Both the position numbers and the translations under genes were made by a program. Positions 9,998 to 63,243 of a stretch of DNA of 64,000 nt are shown piece by piece. The first letter of the stretch is position 1. Each line of letters begins with the position of its first letter. Source of the DNA: an archaeon CG10_big_fil_rev_8_21_14_0_10_43_11 (GTDB lineage Archaea; Nanobdellota; Nanobdellia; PEZQ01); assembly GCA_002763265.1 (NCBI GenBank), contig PEZQ01000007.1, positions 63,368 through 127,367 on the forward strand, given 5' to 3'. The notes under the pieces were generated by a model. That model was not told the origin of the DNA. It saw only the letters and a program-made list of their open reading frames with translations, and ran no database searches.

Positions 9998-10024
9998 AAT
10001 ACCCACGCCACATCAAAAACGAGT

Positions 10025-10879
10025 ATGAATGAAAGGGAAGCGCGTGTTGTACAGTACTTGCGAACAAACGGACCAAGCCTGCCAGTACAAGTGTCAAAAG
10101 CACTAGAAGAAAATGTGATGTTTGCTTCAGCACTGCTTGGCGGGCTTGTGGCTACAAAACAAATCAGGCTTACGCGAAAAAAAATCGGCAACTCACCGCT
10201 CTACTTTCTGCCAGAACACATTAATCACGCACGAAGAATCATTTATGACCGACTTGACCCTCGAGAAAAAGAATTAGTTGATTTTGTCACTAAAAAAGGC
10301 GTGGTGCGCGAGGACGAGCTCACCCCAACTGAGCGGTTTTTTATCAAGGACTTGGTTGATTTTTTTGAATCAGAACAAGAAAACAACCAAACGTACTGGA
10401 AAGTGCCCGGAACAAATGCAAAACCAACGCTTGAACCGCCAAAACCTCTTGTGTCAAAACCAGAGCCGAGCGCGCGAAGAGAGGAACAGCAACCCTTTAT
10501 CAAACAAGAAGCAGAACCCCACGAGGAGAAAAAACCCATCCATCTCAAAGATTCAGGTGATGATGAGTTCACGCGCAAAGTAAAACACTTCTTTGTCAAG
10601 CGGGGTATTCGCATTCTCAACACGGATGTGGTGCGAAGCAATGCGGAAATAAACTTTACTGTGCAAATCCAGGGAGACTTGATTCCCCAAACCTATTTTG
10701 TAAAAGCGCGCAAGAAAAAGAAAATCAACGACAACGACCTTATTGCTGCATGGTTTGAGGGACGAAAGCAAAAAGCACCCATACTCTATCTCGCAACAGG
10801 AGAGCTCACTAAAAAAGCGGAAAAATTCTTAAAAGAAGAGTTTGGCGAAAACTTCACGTTTCTCAAAGTAAGCGTGTAG
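10025..10879 (+). CDS. Hypothetical protein, N-terminal winged-helix-like region, acidic linker and C-terminal alpha/beta domain
   Basis: 284-aa ORF with coding-like composition; no catalytic motif recognised with confidence. Confidence 0.35.
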   Translation: MNEREARVVQYLRTNGPSLPVQVSKALEENVMFASALLGGLVATKQIRLTRKKIGNSPLYFLPEHINHARRIIYDRLDPREKELVDFVTKKGVVREDELTPTERFFIKDLVDFFESEQENNQTYWKVPGTNAKPTLEPPKPLVSKPEPSARREEQQPFIKQEAEPHEEKKPIHLKDSGDDEFTRKVKHFFVKRGIRILNTDVVRSNAEINFTVQIQGDLIPQTYFVKARKKKKINDNDLIAAWFEGRKQKAPILYLATGELTKKAEKFLKEEFGENFTFLKVSV

Positions 10880-10916
10880 AAATCTTTAAAATCCAACATG
10901 CAATGTTCTTACATTC

Positions 10917-11894
10917 ATGGAATCAGATGCCAAAATCTATGTTGCAGGACACCGCGGACTTGTAGGCTCCGCGCTTGTGCGAAAACTTGAAGAGCGGGGC
11001 TACACCAATCTTGTGTACAAAACCTCACGCGAACTTGACTTGCGACGACAAAGCAGTGTTGAAGCATTCTTTCAAAAAGAAAAACCAGAGTATGTTATCA
11101 TTTCTGCAGCAAAAGTTGGCGGCATCATGGCAAATAAACAATCACCTGCAACCTTTCTTACTGACAATCTGCTTATTGAAACTAATCTTATCAAAACCGC
11201 GTACGAGACGGGCGTAAAAAAACTATTGTTTCTTGGAAGCTCGTGCGTTTACCCAAAATTCGCGCGCCAACCCATGCGAGAAGAATACTTTCTTACCGGT
11301 CCGCTTGAGCCAACCAATGAAGGGTATTCTGTTGCAAAAATTGCGGGCATGGAACTGTGCAAACACTACCACACCCAATACGGGGCGGAATTTTTCTCAG
11401 TCATGCCCACAAACCTATATGGCCCGCACGACAATTTTGACCTCACGTCTTCGCACGTGATTCCCGCGCTCATACGCCGATTTCACGAAGCAAAAGAGCG
11501 CGCAGACAAGACCGTGACGCTTTGGGGAACGGGCAGTGCAAAGCGCGAGTTCATGCACGTGGACAGCTTGGCAGATGCGCTCGTCTACGTGATGGAACGC
11601 GTGAGTCTCGAAGACATTGCACGCCTTGACTGGGAAGAAAACGCGCCAAACAAAACCTTTGTCAACATTGGCACGGGAACTGACATCAGCATCAAAGACC
11701 TTGCCTACAAGATAAAAGACATTGTCGGCTACTCGGGACGCATTGAACACGACCTTACCAAGCCTGACGGCACGCCACGAAAACTCTTGGACGTATCAAA
11801 ACTCTCACAACTTGGCTGGAAAGCAACCATTGATTTTGACGCAGGCCTTAAACAAACCTACGCATGGTATCTTGAAAACATAGCCTCACGCTAA
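10917..11894 (+). CDS. fcl: GDP-L-fucose synthase (GDP-4-keto-6-deoxy-D-mannose 3,5-epimerase/4-reductase)
   Basis: 325 aa; N-terminal Rossmann IYVAGHRGLVGSAL; SDR catalytic region GSSCVYP...YSVAK; overall collinear with bacterial Fcl/WcaG. Confidence 0.85.
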   Translation: MESDAKIYVAGHRGLVGSALVRKLEERGYTNLVYKTSRELDLRRQSSVEAFFQKEKPEYVIISAAKVGGIMANKQSPATFLTDNLLIETNLIKTAYETGVKKLLFLGSSCVYPKFARQPMREEYFLTGPLEPTNEGYSVAKIAGMELCKHYHTQYGAEFFSVMPTNLYGPHDNFDLTSSHVIPALIRRFHEAKERADKTVTLWGTGSAKREFMHVDSLADALVYVMERVSLEDIARLDWEENAPNKTFVNIGTGTDISIKDLAYKIKDIVGYSGRIEHDLTKPDGTPRKLLDVSKLSQLGWKATIDFDAGLKQTYAWYLENIASR

Positions 11895-54992: not shown

Positions 54993-56278
54993 GCAATAAA
55001 CTGCATGCCCTTAAACAAAATAAGCGGAGCAATAAATGCTGATTTTTGAATTGGCTCACTGCCGATTGCGTTGATTTTCTTGATTGTATCAAACACGTTT
55101 CCGCTTATCATGCCTGACGAAATCGCGTGCGTTACCTCACCATTCTCAATTGCATACGCTTTTGCAAGCTCATTGCTAAAATCGCCTGACACGGGATTGC
55201 TCATGTGCGCGCCAGACACGCTTGACACGAGCACGCCTTTTTTAATTCCTGAAATAATATCGCTGCGCGATGCTGTTCCTCGCGCGATTACCACATTTGA
55301 TGCACCAATTGCAGGACGAGCAGTAAGTGATGAACAATTGCCTGTTGATTTTCTCTTTGCCAGATTTGCAGTGTAATAATCGTAGAGTCCTGACTTGAGC
55401 ACGCCTTTTTCAATAAGCACCGTCTTTTTTGCGCCAACACCTTCACTGTCAGACTCGTACGAGCCAAGACCATACTCAATTGTGGCATCATCAACAATGG
55501 AGAGTTTTGGTGACGCAACTTTTTCGCCAATCTTATGCGAAAAAAACGAATCTCCTTTGTGCAGAGCATACCCGTTGAGCGCTGAAACAAGGGTTTCACC
55601 AATCACATCCTGCAACGCCTCATGCTCCAAAACAACCGGGTACGTGCCGGTTTGGATTGGCTTTGGGTTTTGACTCTTGAGACATTCATCAATTGCTTCT
55701 TTTGCCACTTTTCCCGGGTTTGGTTGTTTTACAAACATATGACCTGACGAGCCAGTAATGTTGTTTTTGATAACATCCAGGCTCATTGAAACACCTGCAC
55801 GTATGTGCGAGTTTGACACGCCATTTGAATTTGCAACCAAGACCCGATGATGGCCTGTGCCCAGCCAAAGACCATGCATGCTCACCTTTGCGTGTTTTAC
55901 CATATCAAGCATGAGTTTTGCGTGCGCACCCAAATCCTCAACACTCATATCAAGGAGCGCAGGCTCAAAGAGCTTGACTGACGCTTTTGTGTCCTCAACA
56001 GGCAACCCCTTGAAGTGCCGGTCTTTTTCTGAGATGCGCGCAAGCTTTGTTGCCTGTTTGAGCGTTTCCTCCCACGTATCAGTGCGCGACGTGGTTGCAA
56101 CACCAGTTCTGCCATCAGGAAGCGTGACGCGAATAATCATGCGCTTTGAGTGCGAAAAATGAGGATAGAGAAGTTTATCTTTTTCATATACAAGCGACGT
56201 TTGCGTGCTCTCAGTAATACCCAGTTCTATATTATTGCGTTTATCACGTTTAATGATTTTATTACTCAGCTCTTCCAC
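54989..56278 (-). CDS. PmbA/TldE-family protein (TldD/PmbA metalloprotease partner)
   Basis: TldD/PmbA-fold protein immediately downstream of TldD. ORF track start 56395 overlaps tldD by 134 nt; GTG at 56278 (or TTG at 56281) just after the TldD stop is the more plausible start. Confidence 0.65.
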   Translation of the reverse strand: MEELSNKIIKRDKRNNIELGITESTQTSLVYEKDKLLYPHFSHSKRMIIRVTLPDGRTGVATTSRTDTWEETLKQATKLARISEKDRHFKGLPVEDTKASVKLFEPALLDMSVEDLGAHAKLMLDMVKHAKVSMHGLWLGTGHHRVLVANSNGVSNSHIRAGVSMSLDVIKNNITGSSGHMFVKQPNPGKVAKEAIDECLKSQNPKPIQTGTYPVVLEHEALQDVIGETLVSALNGYALHKGDSFFSHKIGEKVASPKLSIVDDATIEYGLGSYESDSEGVGAKKTVLIEKGVLKSGLYDYYTANLAKRKSTGNCSSLTARPAIGASNVVIARGTASRSDIISGIKKGVLVSSVSGAHMSNPVSGDFSNELAKAYAIENGEVTHAISSGMISGNVFDTIKKINAIGSEPIQKSAFIAPLILFKGMQFIA

Positions 56279-57635
56279 CAACAACCACCTTACTAATACG
56301 CATGTGCGGCGCAAACTCGCCAACAGGCACGCTTTGACCTGCTTTTCCGCAAAAACCTCCTTCTGAGAGCACACTCTTTTTGCCAATACCATCAATAAGT
56401 TGCAGAGTTTTGAGAATGTTTCCTGTCAAACTCACATCGCGAAGCGGTGTCGTTATCTCGCCATCCTTGATGAGCCATGCTTCTTGCGCGCCAAACACGA
56501 ATTTTCCCTCAGTGGGAATGACTTGGCCGCCACTTGAACCTGCCGCGTACACTCCCTCTTTTATGTCACGTATGAGTTCGTCTTTTGTGAACGTTCCCGG
56601 TCTAAGAATAGACGTGCTCATGCGAGGAATGGGAAAATGATAGACTGACTGGCTTCTGCCATTACCGGTTGGCTCTGCTTTCATTTTTGATGCGGTATCA
56701 AGTGAGTGCAAATAACCCGTGAGCACGCCATCCTTGATAAGCGGAGTCGTGGTTTTTTTCACCCCCTCACTATCATACTGGTACGAGCCAAAACTATGCT
56801 GGACCAGGCCGTCGCTAAAACTCACCAAAGGGCTTGCAACCGCTTTGCCCATCATGCCTTTCATCACTGACGCACCCTCCAAAATTGCATCAGCCTCGCA
56901 GGCGTGGCCTACTGCTTCATGAAAAAACACGCCAGAAAGTGCGCCATCACACACAAGCGGAAGCGTTTTTGCCGGCGCGTGTTTTGCATGCAATAAGCGA
57001 AGCGCCATAGCAACCGTATCTTGGGCAAGACCAACAATGCCCTTGTCATAAAACACTTCCAAACCCCCCGTGCGCGCATCACCTTTGTGCGCGCGCTGCA
57101 TAACATCTCCTTCGCGCGCAAGCGCGCTTACGCTATACATGGTTTTGTAATCAGTCTCAAAGAGCATACTTCCTTCACTGTCATAAAACTCGTTTTTTGA
57201 TTTCACACTTGCAAGCGTTGCAAACACGCGTCTGACGCGTTTGTCAACACCTTTTGTTGTTTTTGAAAGTAAGAGTACGCGTTTGAGTTGCTTTTCAAGG
57301 TCTTCGCCAAACGGGTTTTTCTCAGGAGTAACGGTTACGCTGTCTTTAACGCGCTGTTTTTTAATATGCACGTTTGCGCCGCGAACGCGGCCAAGCTTGA
57401 GTGCTTCACGAAACGCGTCTTGAAGGTTTTTCGTGTTTTGGGATGATACCATAACCCATGAGCCCTTATACACGCCGCGAACCCACAATGCTTTTGCATT
57501 ATGTGCACCAAGCGATTTTACGGACTGGTCTTCAACTGCAAGGTTTTGCGCAATTGAATCAGAAATAAGCATATCCCAATAATCAAACTCGTTTGCAATG
57601 CGTGGAATCTTCATCAAAACAATACTATGGTTCAA
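56262..57635 (-). CDS. tldD: TldD-family metalloprotease
   Basis: 457 aa with HEAVGH zinc-binding motif and C-terminal Gly-rich region typical of TldD. Confidence 0.8.
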   Translation of the reverse strand: MNHSIVLMKIPRIANEFDYWDMLISDSIAQNLAVEDQSVKSLGAHNAKALWVRGVYKGSWVMVSSQNTKNLQDAFREALKLGRVRGANVHIKKQRVKDSVTVTPEKNPFGEDLEKQLKRVLLLSKTTKGVDKRVRRVFATLASVKSKNEFYDSEGSMLFETDYKTMYSVSALAREGDVMQRAHKGDARTGGLEVFYDKGIVGLAQDTVAMALRLLHAKHAPAKTLPLVCDGALSGVFFHEAVGHACEADAILEGASVMKGMMGKAVASPLVSFSDGLVQHSFGSYQYDSEGVKKTTTPLIKDGVLTGYLHSLDTASKMKAEPTGNGRSQSVYHFPIPRMSTSILRPGTFTKDELIRDIKEGVYAAGSSGGQVIPTEGKFVFGAQEAWLIKDGEITTPLRDVSLTGNILKTLQLIDGIGKKSVLSEGGFCGKAGQSVPVGEFAPHMRISKVVVGGRAE

Positions 57636-57648
57636 ACGTTATTAAGGT

Positions 57649-59013
57649 TTACTTCACCACGCTGCTAATCTTCTTGCTCACATCCTGACTGTTTTTTAGC
57701 GCGTGCTTAACCACTTCAGAAATAGTCTTAACCGGAATAATTCTTATGCCCTGCAATTCCTTTTTTGAGAGCACCACATCTTTTTCGTTCATAGCAGGAA
57801 TAATCACCGTTTTGTATCCTGCGCGCACTGCTGCTTCTATTTTTTCGTTCACGCCGCCAACAGGCATGACCTCACCAGAAATTGACAAGCTGCCGGTCAT
57901 TGCTATTTCCTGTTTGACTGGCAATTTTTCAAGAGAAGAAATAATCGCGGTTGCAATGCTAATTGACGCGCTATCGCCTTCAACACCCTCATACGTTTGC
58001 AAGAACTGGATGTGAATATCATAATTCTCAATATTTTTTGACGAGTACTGTTTGATGACTGCGCTCACGTTTTGCACTGCCTCTTTTGCAATATCTCCAA
58101 GCCGTCCGGTTGCAATAATTTGTGACTCGCTCTTGCCAAACGAGCGGGCAACAACCGCTTCAATAGGCAGCACGATTCCTGAATGCGTTTCAGCACTGCC
58201 CAACACGGCAAGACCATTCACGCGGCCAACTTCTGCACCCTTGTTTCGAAGGATTTGATAGTCTTTCTTTTCAGTGGTGAATTTCTCAGTCATTTGCTGT
58301 TCAAGAGAACGCGCATACGTTTTTGCAGAGGTCACATCTTCTGGCTGTACATGTGTATGCTTTTTTTCGCGCGCAATATCACCTGCAACACGGATAAGAC
58401 CGCCAAGGTCGCGAAGTTTGAGCGTGAGATGTCCTTTTCTTCCTGCACGGCGTCGTGATTCATTAACAATTTCAAGCACAGCATCACGCGTGAAATGAGG
58501 AATTTTTGTGTCCTTAACTACTTCCTGAGCTACAAATCTAGCGAGGTATTCGCGGTTTTCTGGCGTGTCTGGCATCGTGTCATTCATGAATACTTCATAT
58601 CCATATCCGCGGATACGCGAGCGAAGCGCAGGATGCATTTTCTGCGTGGTTTCAGCATTTCCTGCAGCAACAAGAATAAAATCGCAGGGAGCGGGCTCGG
58701 TTTGAATCATGGCGCCGCTTGAACGTTCGCTTCTTCCAGTGATTGTCATTCTCTTTTCCTGCATGGCAGTCAAGAGTTCAATTTGCGTTTTTGGGCTCAT
58801 AGTTGCGATTTCATCAACAAACAAGACGCCCTTGTTTGCTTTGTGAATCGCGCCTGCAACCACTAACTCGTGGGCGGGCGTACCAAGACCGCCAGAATTA
58901 GTGGCTAACACGTCGCTTGCGATAACATTACCCGATTCAGTAGTAATATTATAGATATGCTCATCAACATCAATTTCACGAATTGATGTAATCTTATCCT
59001 CTTTCAAACTCAT
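57649..59013 (-). CDS. lonB: Split LonB protease, C-terminal half: intein C-fragment (39 aa) fused to LonB C-extein (Walker B and Ser-Lys protease domain)
   Basis: Begins [39 protein letters not shown] (intein blocks F/G, terminal Asn) then [10 protein letters not shown]...VLFVDEI (Walker B)...GDSASISIA (catalytic Ser region). Confidence 0.8.
58897..59013 (-). other. Intein C-terminal fragment (IntC, 39 aa) of split LonB intein
   Basis: Own ATG; block F-like [18 protein letters not shown]; terminal Asn followed by +1 Ser of the extein; same size class as known IntC fragments. Confidence 0.7.
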
Positions 59014-59036
59014 CTAGAATTGATAGGTCCGCTATC

Positions 59037-59054
59037 TTTAAAATAGTTTTTATA
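59037..59054 (-). promoter_or_regulatory. AT-rich TATA-like element (TATAAAAACTATTTTAAA on minus strand) 24-41 nt upstream of the IntC-LonB start
   Basis: Lies inside the 57-nt spacer between the two intein halves, which also carries four in-frame stop codons. Confidence 0.4.
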
Positions 59055-59070
59055 CGATGTGCAGAAAGAA

Positions 59071-60081
59071 TCATGCCACAAGAATAGTGTTTCCTACTCT
59101 TAAATCACGCGCAGCTACTTGTCCGTTATTTGTAAATATCTTATGTTCTGGGGTAACGGTTACTTTTTTCCCGCTCTCTGTTTTTATTTCAAACATTTTT
59201 CCACAATAGGGTCTCCTGTTTACTGCCACTACACCAACAGGTGCAACCATGTCCTCCTTAGCTCCAAGAATTGAATACTCTTTTTTTGGAAGGAAAACAG
59301 CCTCATAGCCTTCATCATTCCTTTCAACTGAATCTTTGTATTTTAATAAAATATCATCTACAAATTCCTTTATTTCAACAACCTTCTCTTCTTCTTTATC
59401 TCTTAAGGTTACATAATTAGAAGCCAAAAAACATTGAAACGGATCGTGCTTGACATCTCCTAAAAGCGCACCCTCATGACTGCCAGTTGCATCAACAAAG
59501 GGAGCCATTGCTTTTCCGGTGTTGTCTACCACGATTTTTGGCGCAAGCACTTGCACGCGCTGTTTTCGAAGCTGGTAGGATGCTAAATACACCATAAACA
59601 CAATAAGAAGCGCAAGCGTGGTAATCGTGCTTGCAATGCGGTTTGCTGCTTGCAGCACATCACTCTCACCCCTGCTTAAAAAGTCAAAAACAAAACCAAC
59701 AAGATTGATAACAAGAAGCATGCCAATCAGAATAAAGAGCGTTCTGTCGCGCCCGCTTGTCATGCTGCGCACTTGCTCTTTTATGCGCATTGTTCTTCCT
59801 TCACCTGCAGGAACCGTGGTGATAAGCGGGTGGTCTGTGTCTTTATCATTTGGAAGGCTGAGGATGTCAACAAGCTTTTCTTTTGACAATAATTCAGCAA
59901 GCGCTTGACCAAGCATTGACTTTCCGGTTCCCGGAGAACCAATAAGAAGGATATTTCTTCGCTGACGCGCTGCTTTTTGCACGATTTCAACTGCTTTTTC
60001 CTGACCAATAACTTGGTTAAGCGTTTGCTTGTCAACGCTAATCTCGCTTGTTGTTTTAAAGCCAAACTCTTTAGACACCAT
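59071..60081 (-). CDS. lonB: Split LonB protease, N-terminal half: LonB N-extein (Walker A and membrane anchor) fused to intein N-fragment (about 120 aa)
   Basis: GSPGTGKS Walker A; two TM helices inserted in the ATPase domain (LonB hallmark); extein ends ...GDVKHDPFQ, then CFLASNYVTL... (intein block A, Cys1) ...VTVTPEHKIFT (block B TxxH)...NTILVA followed by stop. Confidence 0.8.
   Translation of the reverse strand: MVSKEFGFKTTSEISVDKQTLNQVIGQEKAVEIVQKAARQRRNILLIGSPGTGKSMLGQALAELLSKEKLVDILSLPNDKDTDHPLITTVPAGEGRTMRIKEQVRSMTSGRDRTLFILIGMLLVINLVGFVFDFLSRGESDVLQAANRIASTITTLALLIVFMVYLASYQLRKQRVQVLAPKIVVDNTGKAMAPFVDATGSHEGALLGDVKHDPFQCFLASNYVTLRDKEEEKVVEIKEFVDDILLKYKDSVERNDEGYEAVFLPKKEYSILGAKEDMVAPVGVVAVNRRPYCGKMFEIKTESGKKVTVTPEHKIFTNNGQVAARDLRVGNTILVA
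59074..59433 (-). other. Intein N-terminal fragment (IntN, about 120 aa) of split LonB intein
   Basis: Starts with Cys codon TGT at 59433-59431 immediately after the extein Gln; block B TPEH present; ends at TGA 59071-59073. Confidence 0.7.
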
Positions 60082-60126: not shown

Positions 60127-61323
60127 TCAAAGACCATCATCAACACTTTTGAGAATAATATCATCATCAATGCGAAGACCAAGCGCGGGAATAATAGACA
60201 AACTAATGAGCGCAACAAGCAACACCCCCGCGCCAAGACCAAACAATTCGCTTGCCAACCCCACAGGAATAATTATTAACACAAAAATAAAGCTGTTTAC
60301 AATCGCGCTAAACGAACCAATAGTTGCGCGCGTCATTGACGGAACAAACCGGTTTTGGTAATCGGCAAACACCGCGCCAAAAAGCCCGCTTACAAACATG
60401 AACAGGTGCGCGTTTACCAAAAAGAACACAAGCGAGTCTGAAATGCCAAGAAGCCCAAGAGACGCAGCATACAATATCATCACAAGAATTGAGAAATATT
60501 TTGGTTTCAAAAACGTTTCAATAAAAGAACCCACCTTAACACCAACTCCCTGCATAATGGCAAGCGCGGCGTACACAAACCCAAACAAGAACAAATTTAC
60601 GCCAAATCCCGCAAGATAAAACTGGATGTAGATAAGAATAACAAGGCTGATATTGCTAAGCACCGCAAGCGCGAGCATGAGAATCACATAGGGGCGAACA
60701 TGCAGCATCAGCGTGATTGCATTAATGGTTTCCTTCCACACCGTTTTTGCTTTGATGCGCGCAGTTGATTCAGGCTCTTTGAATTTAAGAGCAACAAAAA
60801 GCGCGATAAGAGATATTACACTCATAAGCGCAAAATTGAGGCGATAATTGATTGACGCAATAAACGCGCCAAGAATAACTGCACTTCCAAGACCAATAAG
60901 ACGAAAAAGCGCGTTGTTGCTAAACGCGAGTTTTGCAAAGCGCGTTCTGCGTTCCTCACGAAGCGAATCATACATAAGCGCGTCACCTGACCCGCTATAA
61001 AACGTGCTGCCAAACGCGGCTAGAGAGAGCACAAAAAGAAATGAGAAAAAAGAGTGGGAAAAAATAGTAAGAAACGAGGCAAGCCCAAAGAGCACGCACG
61101 CAACCACAATTGACTTTTTTCTTCCTGAAACATCAGCAAACACGCCGGTTGGAAGCTCGCTTAAAAGAATAACAAGAGGACCTATTGCCTGAAGAATAAA
61201 GATTTGTGCAACAGACAAACCATTATCCTGCAAGAACACGACAATTGTTGACGCAGCGAGATTTGCAAATAAAAAGAATGAAAGAATATAATTGAGCCCA
61301 ATGTTTCTTCGATATGCACTCAT
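60127..61323 (-). CDS. MFS transporter
   Basis: 398 aa, 12 predicted TM helices, MFS signature GVFADVSGRKK between TM2 and TM3. Confidence 0.75.
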   Translation of the reverse strand: MSAYRRNIGLNYILSFFLFANLAASTIVVFLQDNGLSVAQIFILQAIGPLVILLSELPTGVFADVSGRKKSIVVACVLFGLASFLTIFSHSFFSFLFVLSLAAFGSTFYSGSGDALMYDSLREERRTRFAKLAFSNNALFRLIGLGSAVILGAFIASINYRLNFALMSVISLIALFVALKFKEPESTARIKAKTVWKETINAITLMLHVRPYVILMLALAVLSNISLVILIYIQFYLAGFGVNLFLFGFVYAALAIMQGVGVKVGSFIETFLKPKYFSILVMILYAASLGLLGISDSLVFFLVNAHLFMFVSGLFGAVFADYQNRFVPSMTRATIGSFSAIVNSFIFVLIIIPVGLASELFGLGAGVLLVALISLSIIPALGLRIDDDIILKSVDDGL

Positions 61324-61729: not shown

Positions 61730-62410
61730 CTAGCTTGAAAAAAAGTCATTTGCCGTGTTTCTATCCCCTTCCTGCACGGTTTTAATAGGTTCAGGCTCTG
61801 ATTTTTTAGGCTCAGCAGTTTTTTCTTCTTGTTTTGGCTGCTTGACTGCTTTTGGTTTTTTTGGAGATTTTTGCTTTTGTTCAGGCTCAGCCACGGGTTC
61901 AACGAGTTTTTGCTGGGTTTCTCCGGGTGTTTTAGTAAACGCTTGTTTGAGCTGTTTTTCTGTAACATTAAAATATTTAAAAAATTTGGGCGTGAGACGC
62001 AAAAGCTTTGTTTTACCATACTCTTCTGCCTGCACCAAGCCAAGAGCAATTAATTCATTTACGTGACTATAACTCTTGTTTCCGCGCGCCTTGATAATGT
62101 CTGACTGCGTGATTGGCGAGCGGTACGCAACAATAGCAAGCGTCTTGAGAAGCGTGCTTGAAAATTCTGCTTCCAAAAAATTCTTGATTTCAGGAACAAA
62201 CTCATCTTCAACATTGAGTATGACCTGCTGGCTCGTGCTTGAAATTTTAAACGACGAGTTGGTTTGCACATACTTTTTTTGCAAACCAGACACTAACTCA
62301 TCTAGTTGCTGGTCGTTTAATGACATAAAACGCTTTATTTTCTGGCGTGCGAGCGCTCCTTCGCTTGCAAAAAGCAATGCTTCTAAAAACCGTTGTTTTT
62401 TTTCTGACAC
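61730..62410 (-). CDS. scpB: Segregation and condensation protein B (ScpB) with Lys/Pro/Glu-rich C-terminal tail
   Basis: LEALLFASEGALARQKIKRFMS N-terminal wHTH; second wHTH LKTLAIVAYRSPITQSDIIKARG; downstream of scpA. Confidence 0.7.
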   Translation of the reverse strand: MSEKKQRFLEALLFASEGALARQKIKRFMSLNDQQLDELVSGLQKKYVQTNSSFKISSTSQQVILNVEDEFVPEIKNFLEAEFSSTLLKTLAIVAYRSPITQSDIIKARGNKSYSHVNELIALGLVQAEEYGKTKLLRLTPKFFKYFNVTEKQLKQAFTKTPGETQQKLVEPVAEPEQKQKSPKKPKAVKQPKQEEKTAEPKKSEPEPIKTVQEGDRNTANDFFSS

Positions 62411-62469: not shown

Positions 62470-63243
62470 TCATTGTTGTTCATCGTTCTCGTTTAACTCT
62501 TCTTTGGCAAGGTCAGAATCATCAACAATCTCAACCATGATGTCGCCAAAACTTTTTTCTTGCAAAAGGTTCACCCGACCCCGGTTTGAGAGAATAATAA
62601 GCGGGATAAATGTCCAGATAATATCCTCACGCGACTGCGAGGGCGTGAGTTTTGAAAAGGGCAAGGTGCGCTTTTTTAACGTAGAAAAAAGGCTTCGCAA
62701 ACGGTCAAACACAAGAGTCAATTTTTGGCTGATTTTCATTTCTTTAAACGTGTGCTCAAACTTTTTTCGCTCTTGAAGTGCGTGCATGCGCTCGTGGCGC
62801 GCTTCTTTTCTATTTTTTACGGTGAGTGCGGAATCAAGCGCGCCCATGAGCTCTTGGAGCGTGACTTTGCGCGTTTTTGGTAAGGGAATTCGTGGCTCCA
62901 AATCCCGCACTTCAAGGGTAATGTCTTCTAGCAGGGAAACATGTTCTTGTTGTTCTTGCTCGTTTTTGTCTTCTTTGAACGCAAAATGTTTGCTTTTCAT
63001 GCGCAAAAGAATGGCAGCAATAAGAAGGATTTTTCCAGATAGCCTGAAATTGAGGTCTTTTAATTCTTTGATTTTTGCAAGGTACGCTTTTGTGAGTTTT
63101 GAAACGTCAATGTTCCACGGGTCAATGCCCTGCTCGCGCACAATATCAATAACCAAATTCTCCCACGTGAGTTCGTCATTGAGAATTTTTTGGTATAAAT
63201 CTTCACGTTTTTGCTCTTGACCATTCTCACTCATAGATAACAC
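62470..63243 (-). CDS. scpA: Segregation and condensation protein A (ScpA, kleisin)
   Basis: N-terminal ...IDIVREQGIDPWNIDVSKLTKAYL and C-terminal winged helix typical of ScpA. Confidence 0.75.
   Translation of the reverse strand: MLSMSENGQEQKREDLYQKILNDELTWENLVIDIVREQGIDPWNIDVSKLTKAYLAKIKELKDLNFRLSGKILLIAAILLRMKSKHFAFKEDKNEQEQQEHVSLLEDITLEVRDLEPRIPLPKTRKVTLQELMGALDSALTVKNRKEARHERMHALQERKKFEHTFKEMKISQKLTLVFDRLRSLFSTLKKRTLPFSKLTPSQSREDIIWTFIPLIILSNRGRVNLLQEKSFGDIMVEIVDDSDLAKEELNENDEQQ

Follow-up and report, generated by a model that had tools for sequence, protein, structure and literature searches.

How can a complete LonB protease be produced from a gene that is broken into two open reading frames (ORFs) with stop codons between them? 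This question is raised by a 64,000-nucleotide (nt) stretch of contig PEZQ01000007.1 (assembly GCA_002763265.1) of the archaeon CG10_big_fil_rev_8_21_14_0_10_43_11, hereafter the window, whose positions are numbered from its first letter and which carries the LonB locus on the minus strand. The first ORF, or N-half, comprises the N-terminal part of LonB (N-extein) followed by an N-terminal intein fragment (IntN), and the second ORF, or C-half, comprises a C-terminal intein fragment (IntC) followed by the remaining part of the enzyme (C-extein). It is highly probable that LonB is encoded here by two adjacent, co-oriented genes that arose from the splitting of a genuine intein, with products predicted to be joined by protein trans-splicing; the splicing itself we infer from the sequence. 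The initial annotation had placed a naturally split mini-intein at 58897-59433. These coordinates are exact, as 59433 is the first base of the Cys1 codon and 58897 the last base of the terminal Asn codon. All features are collected in Table 1.

The insertion site lies between Gln216 and Ser within the conserved motif HDPFQ/SGGLGTP. The interruption of LonB at this point, which had been proposed initially, is seen from the intein-free proteins P0122, P0090 and P0234, which continue directly and read DPFQSGGLGTP. The joined exteins give a protein of 631 amino acids (aa) that aligns end to end and with 0 gaps to P0122 (630 aa), at 77.6% identity. The Walker A motif and the membrane anchor reside on one chain and the Walker B motif and the protease domain on the other, as had been noted before. 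The anchor corresponds to two hydrophobic membrane segments of the N-extein, at residues ~114-135 and ~149-170 (Kyte-Doolittle, 19-aa windows >1.8). Pfam matches of the Mg_chelatase/AAA type fall at residues ~20-70 of the N-half; the C-half is matched by Sigma54_activat/AAA_5, LonB_AAA-LID and Lon_C, and is annotated as LonB by NCBI. In the databases the N-half is listed as "hypothetical protein" or "ATP-binding protein" and the C-half as "ATP-dependent protease LonB".

The segment between the exteins is recognizable as an intein in both of its parts. The Pfam family Intein_splicing (PF14890) matches residues 224-335 of the N-ORF above the curated cut-off (E 5e-10), and this match spans positions 1-94 of the 155 profile positions, i.e. 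only the N-terminal part of an intein. A hidden Markov model (HMM) was built from a family alignment, A6, of ten fused or contiguous family members. When compared with the six-frame translation of the window, it matched just the two LonB ORFs, with IntN on positions 1-122 (E 1e-43) and IntC on positions 126-167 (E 7e-17), so that the two matches are complementary and non-overlapping. For IntN and IntC joined in silico, the closest match among solved inteins is KlbA, a mini-intein of Methanocaldococcus jannaschii (2jmz; E 1e-12), and the alignment passes straight across the split point of the window. Among solved structures, the A6 profile likewise matched KlbA (5e-21), as well as the CDC21, NrdJ-1, PolB, RadA, VMA and PolII inteins and hedgehog autoprocessing domains. 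The Pfam, HMM and KlbA alignments thus bear out the initial assignment of both segments to intein blocks.

The class-1 features named in the initial annotation are all present in the window: Cys1, the TPEH of block B (VTVTPEHK), the terminal Asn and Ser+1 (...VLATN/SGG). IntN runs CFLASNYVTL...VTVTPEHKIFT...GNTILVA and then meets a TGA at 59073-59071, and the C-half opens with its own ATG; the division into ORF segments of 120 and 39 aa agrees with the translations and with the profile coverage. In A6 the break point aligns to the 13-19-aa linker of the contiguous inteins L007 and P0142. It is also the place where other family members carry an insert of ~350 aa, i.e. the endonuclease-insertion loop between blocks B and F, which is the canonical split site.

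Table 1. Features of the split LonB locus in the window
Feature	Position	Strand	Description and basis
LonB N-half gene (N-extein then IntN)	59071..60081	-	336 aa + TGA stop; ORF list/translation, Pfam
N-extein	59434..60081	-	216 aa; Walker A GSPGTGKS; C-terminal end ...GDVKHDPFQ; sequence
IntN	59074..59433	-	120 aa; Cys1 (block A CFLASN), block B TPEH; PF14890 + family HMM
Spacer between halves	59014..59070	-	57 nt; translations in three frames
LonB C-half gene (IntC then C-extein)	57649..59013	-	454 aa + stop; ORF list, Pfam
IntC	58897..59013	-	39 aa; Met start, block F/G-like, terminal Asn; family HMM
C-extein	57652..58896	-	415 aa; Ser+1 first; Walker B VLFVDEI, LID, Lon protease domain
TATA-like element ATTTTAAAG	59036..59044	-	23-31 nt upstream of C-half ATG; putative promoter, leaderless C-half mRNA
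TATA-like element TATATAAAA	60106..60114	-	25-33 nt upstream of N-half ATG; putative N-half promoter

The intein halves of the window have many relatives at the same site. A protein search with the N-ORF retrieved 883 proteins, and the following counts refer to the best 120. The intein follows directly after HDP[FL]Q in 117 of these 120 matches, and its residue 1 is always Ser (70), Cys (36) or Thr (11). The protein ends 110-140 aa past the junction in 94 of the 117 intein-bearing matches. Across 26 split N-halves the P-E-H of TPEH is invariant, and the Thr nearly so. The best 120 matches of the C-ORF include 72 proteins that start with Met, followed after a median of 39 aa by N/SGGLGTP; the terminal Asn followed by Ser is found in every one of these 72. 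The other matches include 40 intein-free LonB proteins and one contiguous mini-intein LonB (P0142, 795 aa). At least 94 N-half and at least 72 C-half clusters were thus retrieved, mostly from DPANN archaea; the source names are Woesearchaeota, Nanoarchaeota/Nanoarchaeia, Micrarchaeota and Diapherotrites, all of which belong to DPANN. Judging from these matches, the split is a large DPANN family and not a singularity of one genome, which goes beyond the initial annotation. A search with IntN alone returned mostly unrelated inteins in other proteins. Five of the proteins (P0362, P0368, P0369, P0426 and P0441; 740-925 aa) show an IntN-like match ending at or near the C-terminus and a complete LAGLIDADG-bearing intein, P0368 having a LonB N-terminus. 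Either truncation of multi-intein proteins or additional gene splits may account for them.

The structure of the family was modelled with AlphaFold2 on the intein of the contiguous homologue P0142, which is 40% identical to IntN and 53% identical to IntC, on the basis of an alignment of N-halves. For this model the predicted local distance difference test score (pLDDT) is 85.9 and the predicted template modelling (TM) score 0.81, and confidence is lower just in the linker that matches the split position. Compared with the solved RadA, TFIIB and KlbA inteins, the model gives TM scores of 0.74-0.83. According to this model, the hedgehog/intein (HINT) fold holds for the family. The fold initially proposed for the paired halves is thus obtained by modelling for the contiguous homologue, the halves of the window being assigned to it by profile. 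The HINT fold has a pseudo-twofold symmetry that can also be seen in the sequence. The second half of IntN (59100-59240, minus strand; consensus VLSVNRxxYKGKLIKITTESGK) is similar to IntC (58897-59013, minus strand; KIEKIxYKGKLYNLTTSSGN) in the alignments A3 and A4, so much so that MAFFT misaligned mixtures of fragments from the two.

Several observations speak against trans-splicing. Block F is non-canonical: it reads YNITTESGN, with Asn at both the usual Asp (F:4) and the usual His position, a pattern found in the whole family, contiguous members included. The penultimate residue of the intein is Thr in the window instead of His, and K, S, H, A or T among the relatives, most of which likewise lack the His. 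The charge complementarity of DnaE-type IntN and IntC fragments is absent, as IntN of the window has a charge of -1 and IntC of -5. The structural model is that of P0142 and not of the window's own halves, and the sequence is the basis for predicting splicing as well as promoter use and leaderless translation. The absence of the block F Asp and His and of the penultimate His lowers the intein claim, which is still allowed: these residues vary among active inteins.

The same deviations from the canonical residues favor the view that the halves associate without splicing, IntN and IntC serving as a non-covalent dimerization module of a two-chain LonB. We consider this improbable, although it is the strongest of the alternatives. 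A docking module would need none of the residues that are kept here, namely a nucleophile (C, S or T) at position 1 in 117 of 117 proteins, the terminal Asn and Ser+1 in 72 of 72, and the invariant P-E-H. Moreover, P0142, L007 and L011/L012, which are contiguous and share this block F, cannot give an intact LonB without splicing, and for this reason the block F pattern is treated as a probable idiosyncrasy of the family rather than as decay.

The conserved catalytic residues lend indirect support to trans-splicing, and so does selection on both halves. Between the window and its closest split relative, the syntenic contig L085, dN/dS is 0.10-0.18 for IntN and 0.09-0.15 for IntC, with similar values for the C-extein; dS is near saturation in this comparison, so that the values are approximate, which is a further point on the negative side. 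The two intein halves are thus under purifying selection and not decaying. This bears on the possibility that LonB is a decaying pseudogene, its intein gene broken by stops and neither half functional. The spacer is indeed a visibly decayed relic with indels relative to L085, but the two ORFs run uninterrupted for 336 and 454 codons, the intein halves and the C-extein have dN/dS values of 0.09-0.18, and the same split point recurs in ~100 divergent lineages with the catalytic residues conserved. In addition, a search of the six-frame translation of the window with the family HMM revealed no second LonB gene. Decay of the gene is therefore very unlikely.

Even less credible is an artefact of assembly or sequencing, in which the intein would truly be contiguous and positions 59014-59073 wrong, a possibility that the initial annotation had itself raised as a potential refutation. 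The general risk attached to metagenome-assembled genomes (MAGs) is all that speaks for it. Four independent metagenome assemblies, made from different samples by different pipelines, agree at every position of the 537-nt intein region (100% identity; JGI 3300004208, 3300004209 and 3300025850, representing three samples, and ENA ERZ27293414). The whole 2433-nt two-gene locus is identical in both contigs long enough to contain it, and the identical N-half protein was called in at least four assemblies. Furthermore, five stops and not one lie between the halves, and homologous splits occur in many genomes, including on megabase-sized contigs. In the order of reading, the stops are TGA, TAA, TAA, TAG and TAG, the spacer being in the same frame as both ORFs; with all three kinds represented, a single recoded stop codon does not account for them. 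Recoding that yields a single polypeptide across the spacer, by read-through or by two programmed frameshifts, can be dismissed with similar firmness, because the one alternative frame that stays open is a relic of the lost insert domain, two frameshifts would be needed, all three stop types stand in frame, and the spacer length is free to vary among relatives. Because of the points against each of them, these four explanations are ranked far below trans-splicing.

The origin of the spacer can be traced in the relatives, where the distance between the halves ranges from an overlapping ATGA through ~45, 57 and 144 nt to 0.7-2.9 kb with other genes between them. In L085 the spacer measures 144 nt, and another of its frames reads EDIIDTYSEIERDSAHNYYKYLREQGV..., a sequence matching the insert domain of P0010 and P0014 at its start (E 3e-5 and 3e-4, respectively). 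The spacer of the window retains just the 3' end of such a relic, with indels relative to L085. The 57-nt spacer thus appears to be what is left of a longer relict spacer, itself the trace of an insert domain that was lost, an origin that was not part of the initial annotation. As the relatives suggest, a contiguous intein with an inserted domain would have been split just before IntC, and the insert would then have decayed or been deleted, leaving 57 nt.

The insert itself, a conserved domain or ORF of ~350 aa, takes the place of an endonuclease in the LonB intein, and its motif ..ILGATFGDGG.. contains an invariant G-D-G-G core. It is free-standing in L016 (4719-5771), L014 (4447-5535), L017 (2168-3328) and L090 (3411-4526), and fused to the N-half in P0004, P0015, P0075, L005, L010 and L089. 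Neither Pfam nor the PDB sequences gave a match, and the sole match is to PHROG 14115, of unknown function. The label "LAGLIDADG-like", suggested by the ILGATFGDGG motif, was dropped because Pfam, the PDB profile search and PHROGs gave no confirmation. The insert may represent an unrecognized homing-endonuclease family.

Expression signals were assessed by the position of TATA-like elements relative to the genes of the window itself, since a sigma-70 promoter scan is unsuited to an archaeon. For 54 long ORFs of the whole window, the frequency of TATA-like hexamers has a sharp maximum between -33 and -28 relative to the ATG, which suggests leaderless mRNAs for most genes of this archaeon. Before the C-half, TATA-like hexamers are found at -31, -30 and -29, against a background of 2.2% per random 6-nt window. 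The 36 nt preceding the C-half ATG share 86% identity between the window and L085, compared with 68% for the whole locus, and the mismatches within them cluster between the TATA element and the C-half start. This conserved stretch and its TATA-like element, likewise additions to the initial annotation, and the genome-typical position of both TATA boxes lead us to infer that each half has its own promoter. Where the stop of the N-half overlaps the start of the C-half (ATGA), as it does in other lineages, translational coupling is implied instead.

We propose that both genes have a TATA-box promoter of their own and give rise to leaderless mRNAs. The N-extein–IntN protein, anchored in the membrane, and the soluble IntC–C-extein protein would dock through their intein halves into a HINT fold. 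Class-1 chemistry would then follow: an N-S acyl shift at Cys1, transesterification to Ser+1, cyclization of the terminal Asn and an O-N shift. The exteins would be ligated into the 631-aa LonB and the two intein pieces released.

A survey of the LonB site, based on a scan of species-representative genomes and on contig look-ups, revealed a range of states. The site is intein-free in L046, L049 and many euryarchaea. Contiguous large inteins are present in Archaeoglobaceae (L011/L012; 462 aa, with a YN.TTETGN...KN/SGG signature like that of the family) and in L020/L022, and contiguous mini-inteins in L007 (172 aa) and P0142. Among the split forms, the ~350-aa insert is fused to the N-half in L010, L089 and L093, where the C-half abuts or overlaps, and in L005, where it lies ~250 nt further; the insert forms a free-standing ORF between the halves in L014, L016, L017 and L090. 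The gap holds unrelated content, or lacks an insert ORF, in L019 and L021. In the window and in L085, L013 and L008 the halves are adjacent or abutting without the insert. Finally, L018, L025, L088 and L092 carry an N-half, but a LonB C-extein motif is absent from both strands within 4-10 kb, and the state is called "dispersed" because of this absence on either side.

Two of the last group, the Micrarchaeota genomes L088 (GCA_016212475.1) and L092 (GCA_041305345.1), have the N-half at 10001-11134 and 10001-11116, respectively, in a shared neighborhood with FtsZ and PyrI/PyrB upstream and eIF5A, UbiA and S6e downstream. No LonB C-extein was found within 10 kb on either strand, and a protein search for the C-halves that these Micrarchaeota lack at the locus gave only intein-free or partial proteins. 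L017 (JAFCCG010000016.1), labelled as a "Chloroflexi bacterium" MAG, carries an archaeal split LonB with the intervening insert ORF and is probably a mis-binned DPANN contig.

In the window, LonB-N and LonB-C are part of the series ScpA, ScpB, a 96-aa ORF, a major facilitator superfamily transporter, LonB-N, LonB-C and TldD/PmbA, the ORFs including 56262-57635, 60127-61323, 61730-62410 and 62470-63243, all on the minus strand. This neighborhood is kept in L085, and its downstream part also in the intein-free relative L087, where an extra 139-aa ORF lies between the LonB and TldD/PmbA genes. L087 encodes P0122 (104-1996; Logan SRR22388187), the closest relative of the LonB exteins of the window with 78-80% identity. 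Since this closest relative is intein-free, intein presence varies between close relatives.

A further-reaching interpretation is that the split LonB intein is old, inherited and selectively retained in many DPANN lineages as an obligatory assembly step, possibly a regulatory checkpoint, and not a passing stage of decay; in this view the membrane-anchored and soluble halves are made from separate promoters, and an active ATPase-protease arises only once they have met and been spliced. The family would also supply dozens of Ser1/Ser+1 split inteins, and the insert might be an unrecognized homing-endonuclease family. We put this forward tentatively and regard it as rather unlikely. On the main reading, an essential quality-control protease of genome-reduced archaea would depend on the post-translational ligation of a membrane-anchored and a soluble half. 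Natural split inteins are the workhorses of protein ligation technology, and the LonB family adds a new host protein and, from uncultured archaea, a very large number of natural variants. Ser at position 1 together with Ser+1 is found in many of these, a repertoire relevant to protein engineers and intein specialists. One site shows all stages, from intein-free through contiguous with insert, mini-intein, split with fused insert and split with free ORF to adjacent with relict spacer and dispersed. As these occur side by side, the long-standing model of split-intein origin becomes directly testable by comparative genomics.

Few natural split inteins have been described: the cyanobacterial DnaE, the N. 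equitans PolB and a handful from phages and metagenomes, including the "fractured genes" (PMC4031507, PMC2677866). No published description of a split Lon or LonB intein, nor of any DPANN split intein other than that of N. equitans, was found in the searchable full-text literature, outside which most subscription journals lie; within that scope the initial impression that a split Lon intein is undescribed still stands. Contiguous Lon inteins are already known from Pyrococcus (PMC4031507, ref. 84; PMC3906313). Pab Lon and Pfu Lon were studied biochemically (O'Brien et al. 2010, cited in PMC4031507; PMC3906313), and at least one Pyrococcus Lon intein was shown to splice (PMC4031507, PMC3906313). 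They share the archaeal LonB host with the intein described here, but are contiguous, cis-splicing and endonuclease-containing. Contiguous inteins at the LonB site of the window were confirmed only in Archaeoglobaceae, Micrarchaeota and other MAGs. The KlbA mini-intein (2jmz), the closest solved structure by sequence and alignable through the split point, differs in being contiguous and class-2 (Ala1) and in its host protein.

The DnaE inteins (Ssp and Npu; Wu et al. 1998 and Iwai et al. 2006, cited in PMC4031507) resemble the LonB intein in being class-1-type and split at the endonuclease loop between blocks B and F. Their IntN of 102-123 aa and IntC of 36 aa, each fused to a part of an essential enzyme and joined by trans-splicing, also correspond to the long and short pieces of LonB. 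In contrast to the DnaE of cyanobacteria, whose halves lie far apart on the chromosome, the LonB halves belong to a DPANN archaeon and are adjacent, co-oriented and 57 nt apart. Furthermore, the +1 residue is Ser in LonB and Cys in DnaE, LonB lacks the pairing of acidic IntN with basic IntC, and its splicing is predicted only. The split Neq Pol intein of Nanoarchaeum equitans, reportedly described by Waters et al. in 2003 and Choi et al. in 2006, is archaeal, comes from a reduced DPANN-type genome and joins the halves of an essential enzyme. In these respects, as an archaeal natural split intein of an essential enzyme in a DPANN-type genome, it is like the LonB intein; it differs in its PolB extein, in the distant loci of its halves and in its restriction to one species, whereas the LonB split occurs in many lineages with surviving intermediates.

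The fractured genes (gp41-1, NrdJ-1 and IMPDH-1; Dassa et al. 2009, PMC2677866) share with LonB the neighboring halves on the same strand, and the LonB relatives L014, L016, L017 and L090 likewise carry a free-standing ORF between them. The window has only a 57-nt spacer without an intervening endonuclease gene and thus falls outside the fractured-gene type. The intervening protein of the relatives shows no detectable link to the endonuclease family of PMC2677866 (no Pfam or PDB match; PHROG 14115), and that paper mentions neither Lon nor archaea. The kind of system is therefore known, and its chemistry and concept are not new, but the LonB case is a new and large family of natural split inteins.

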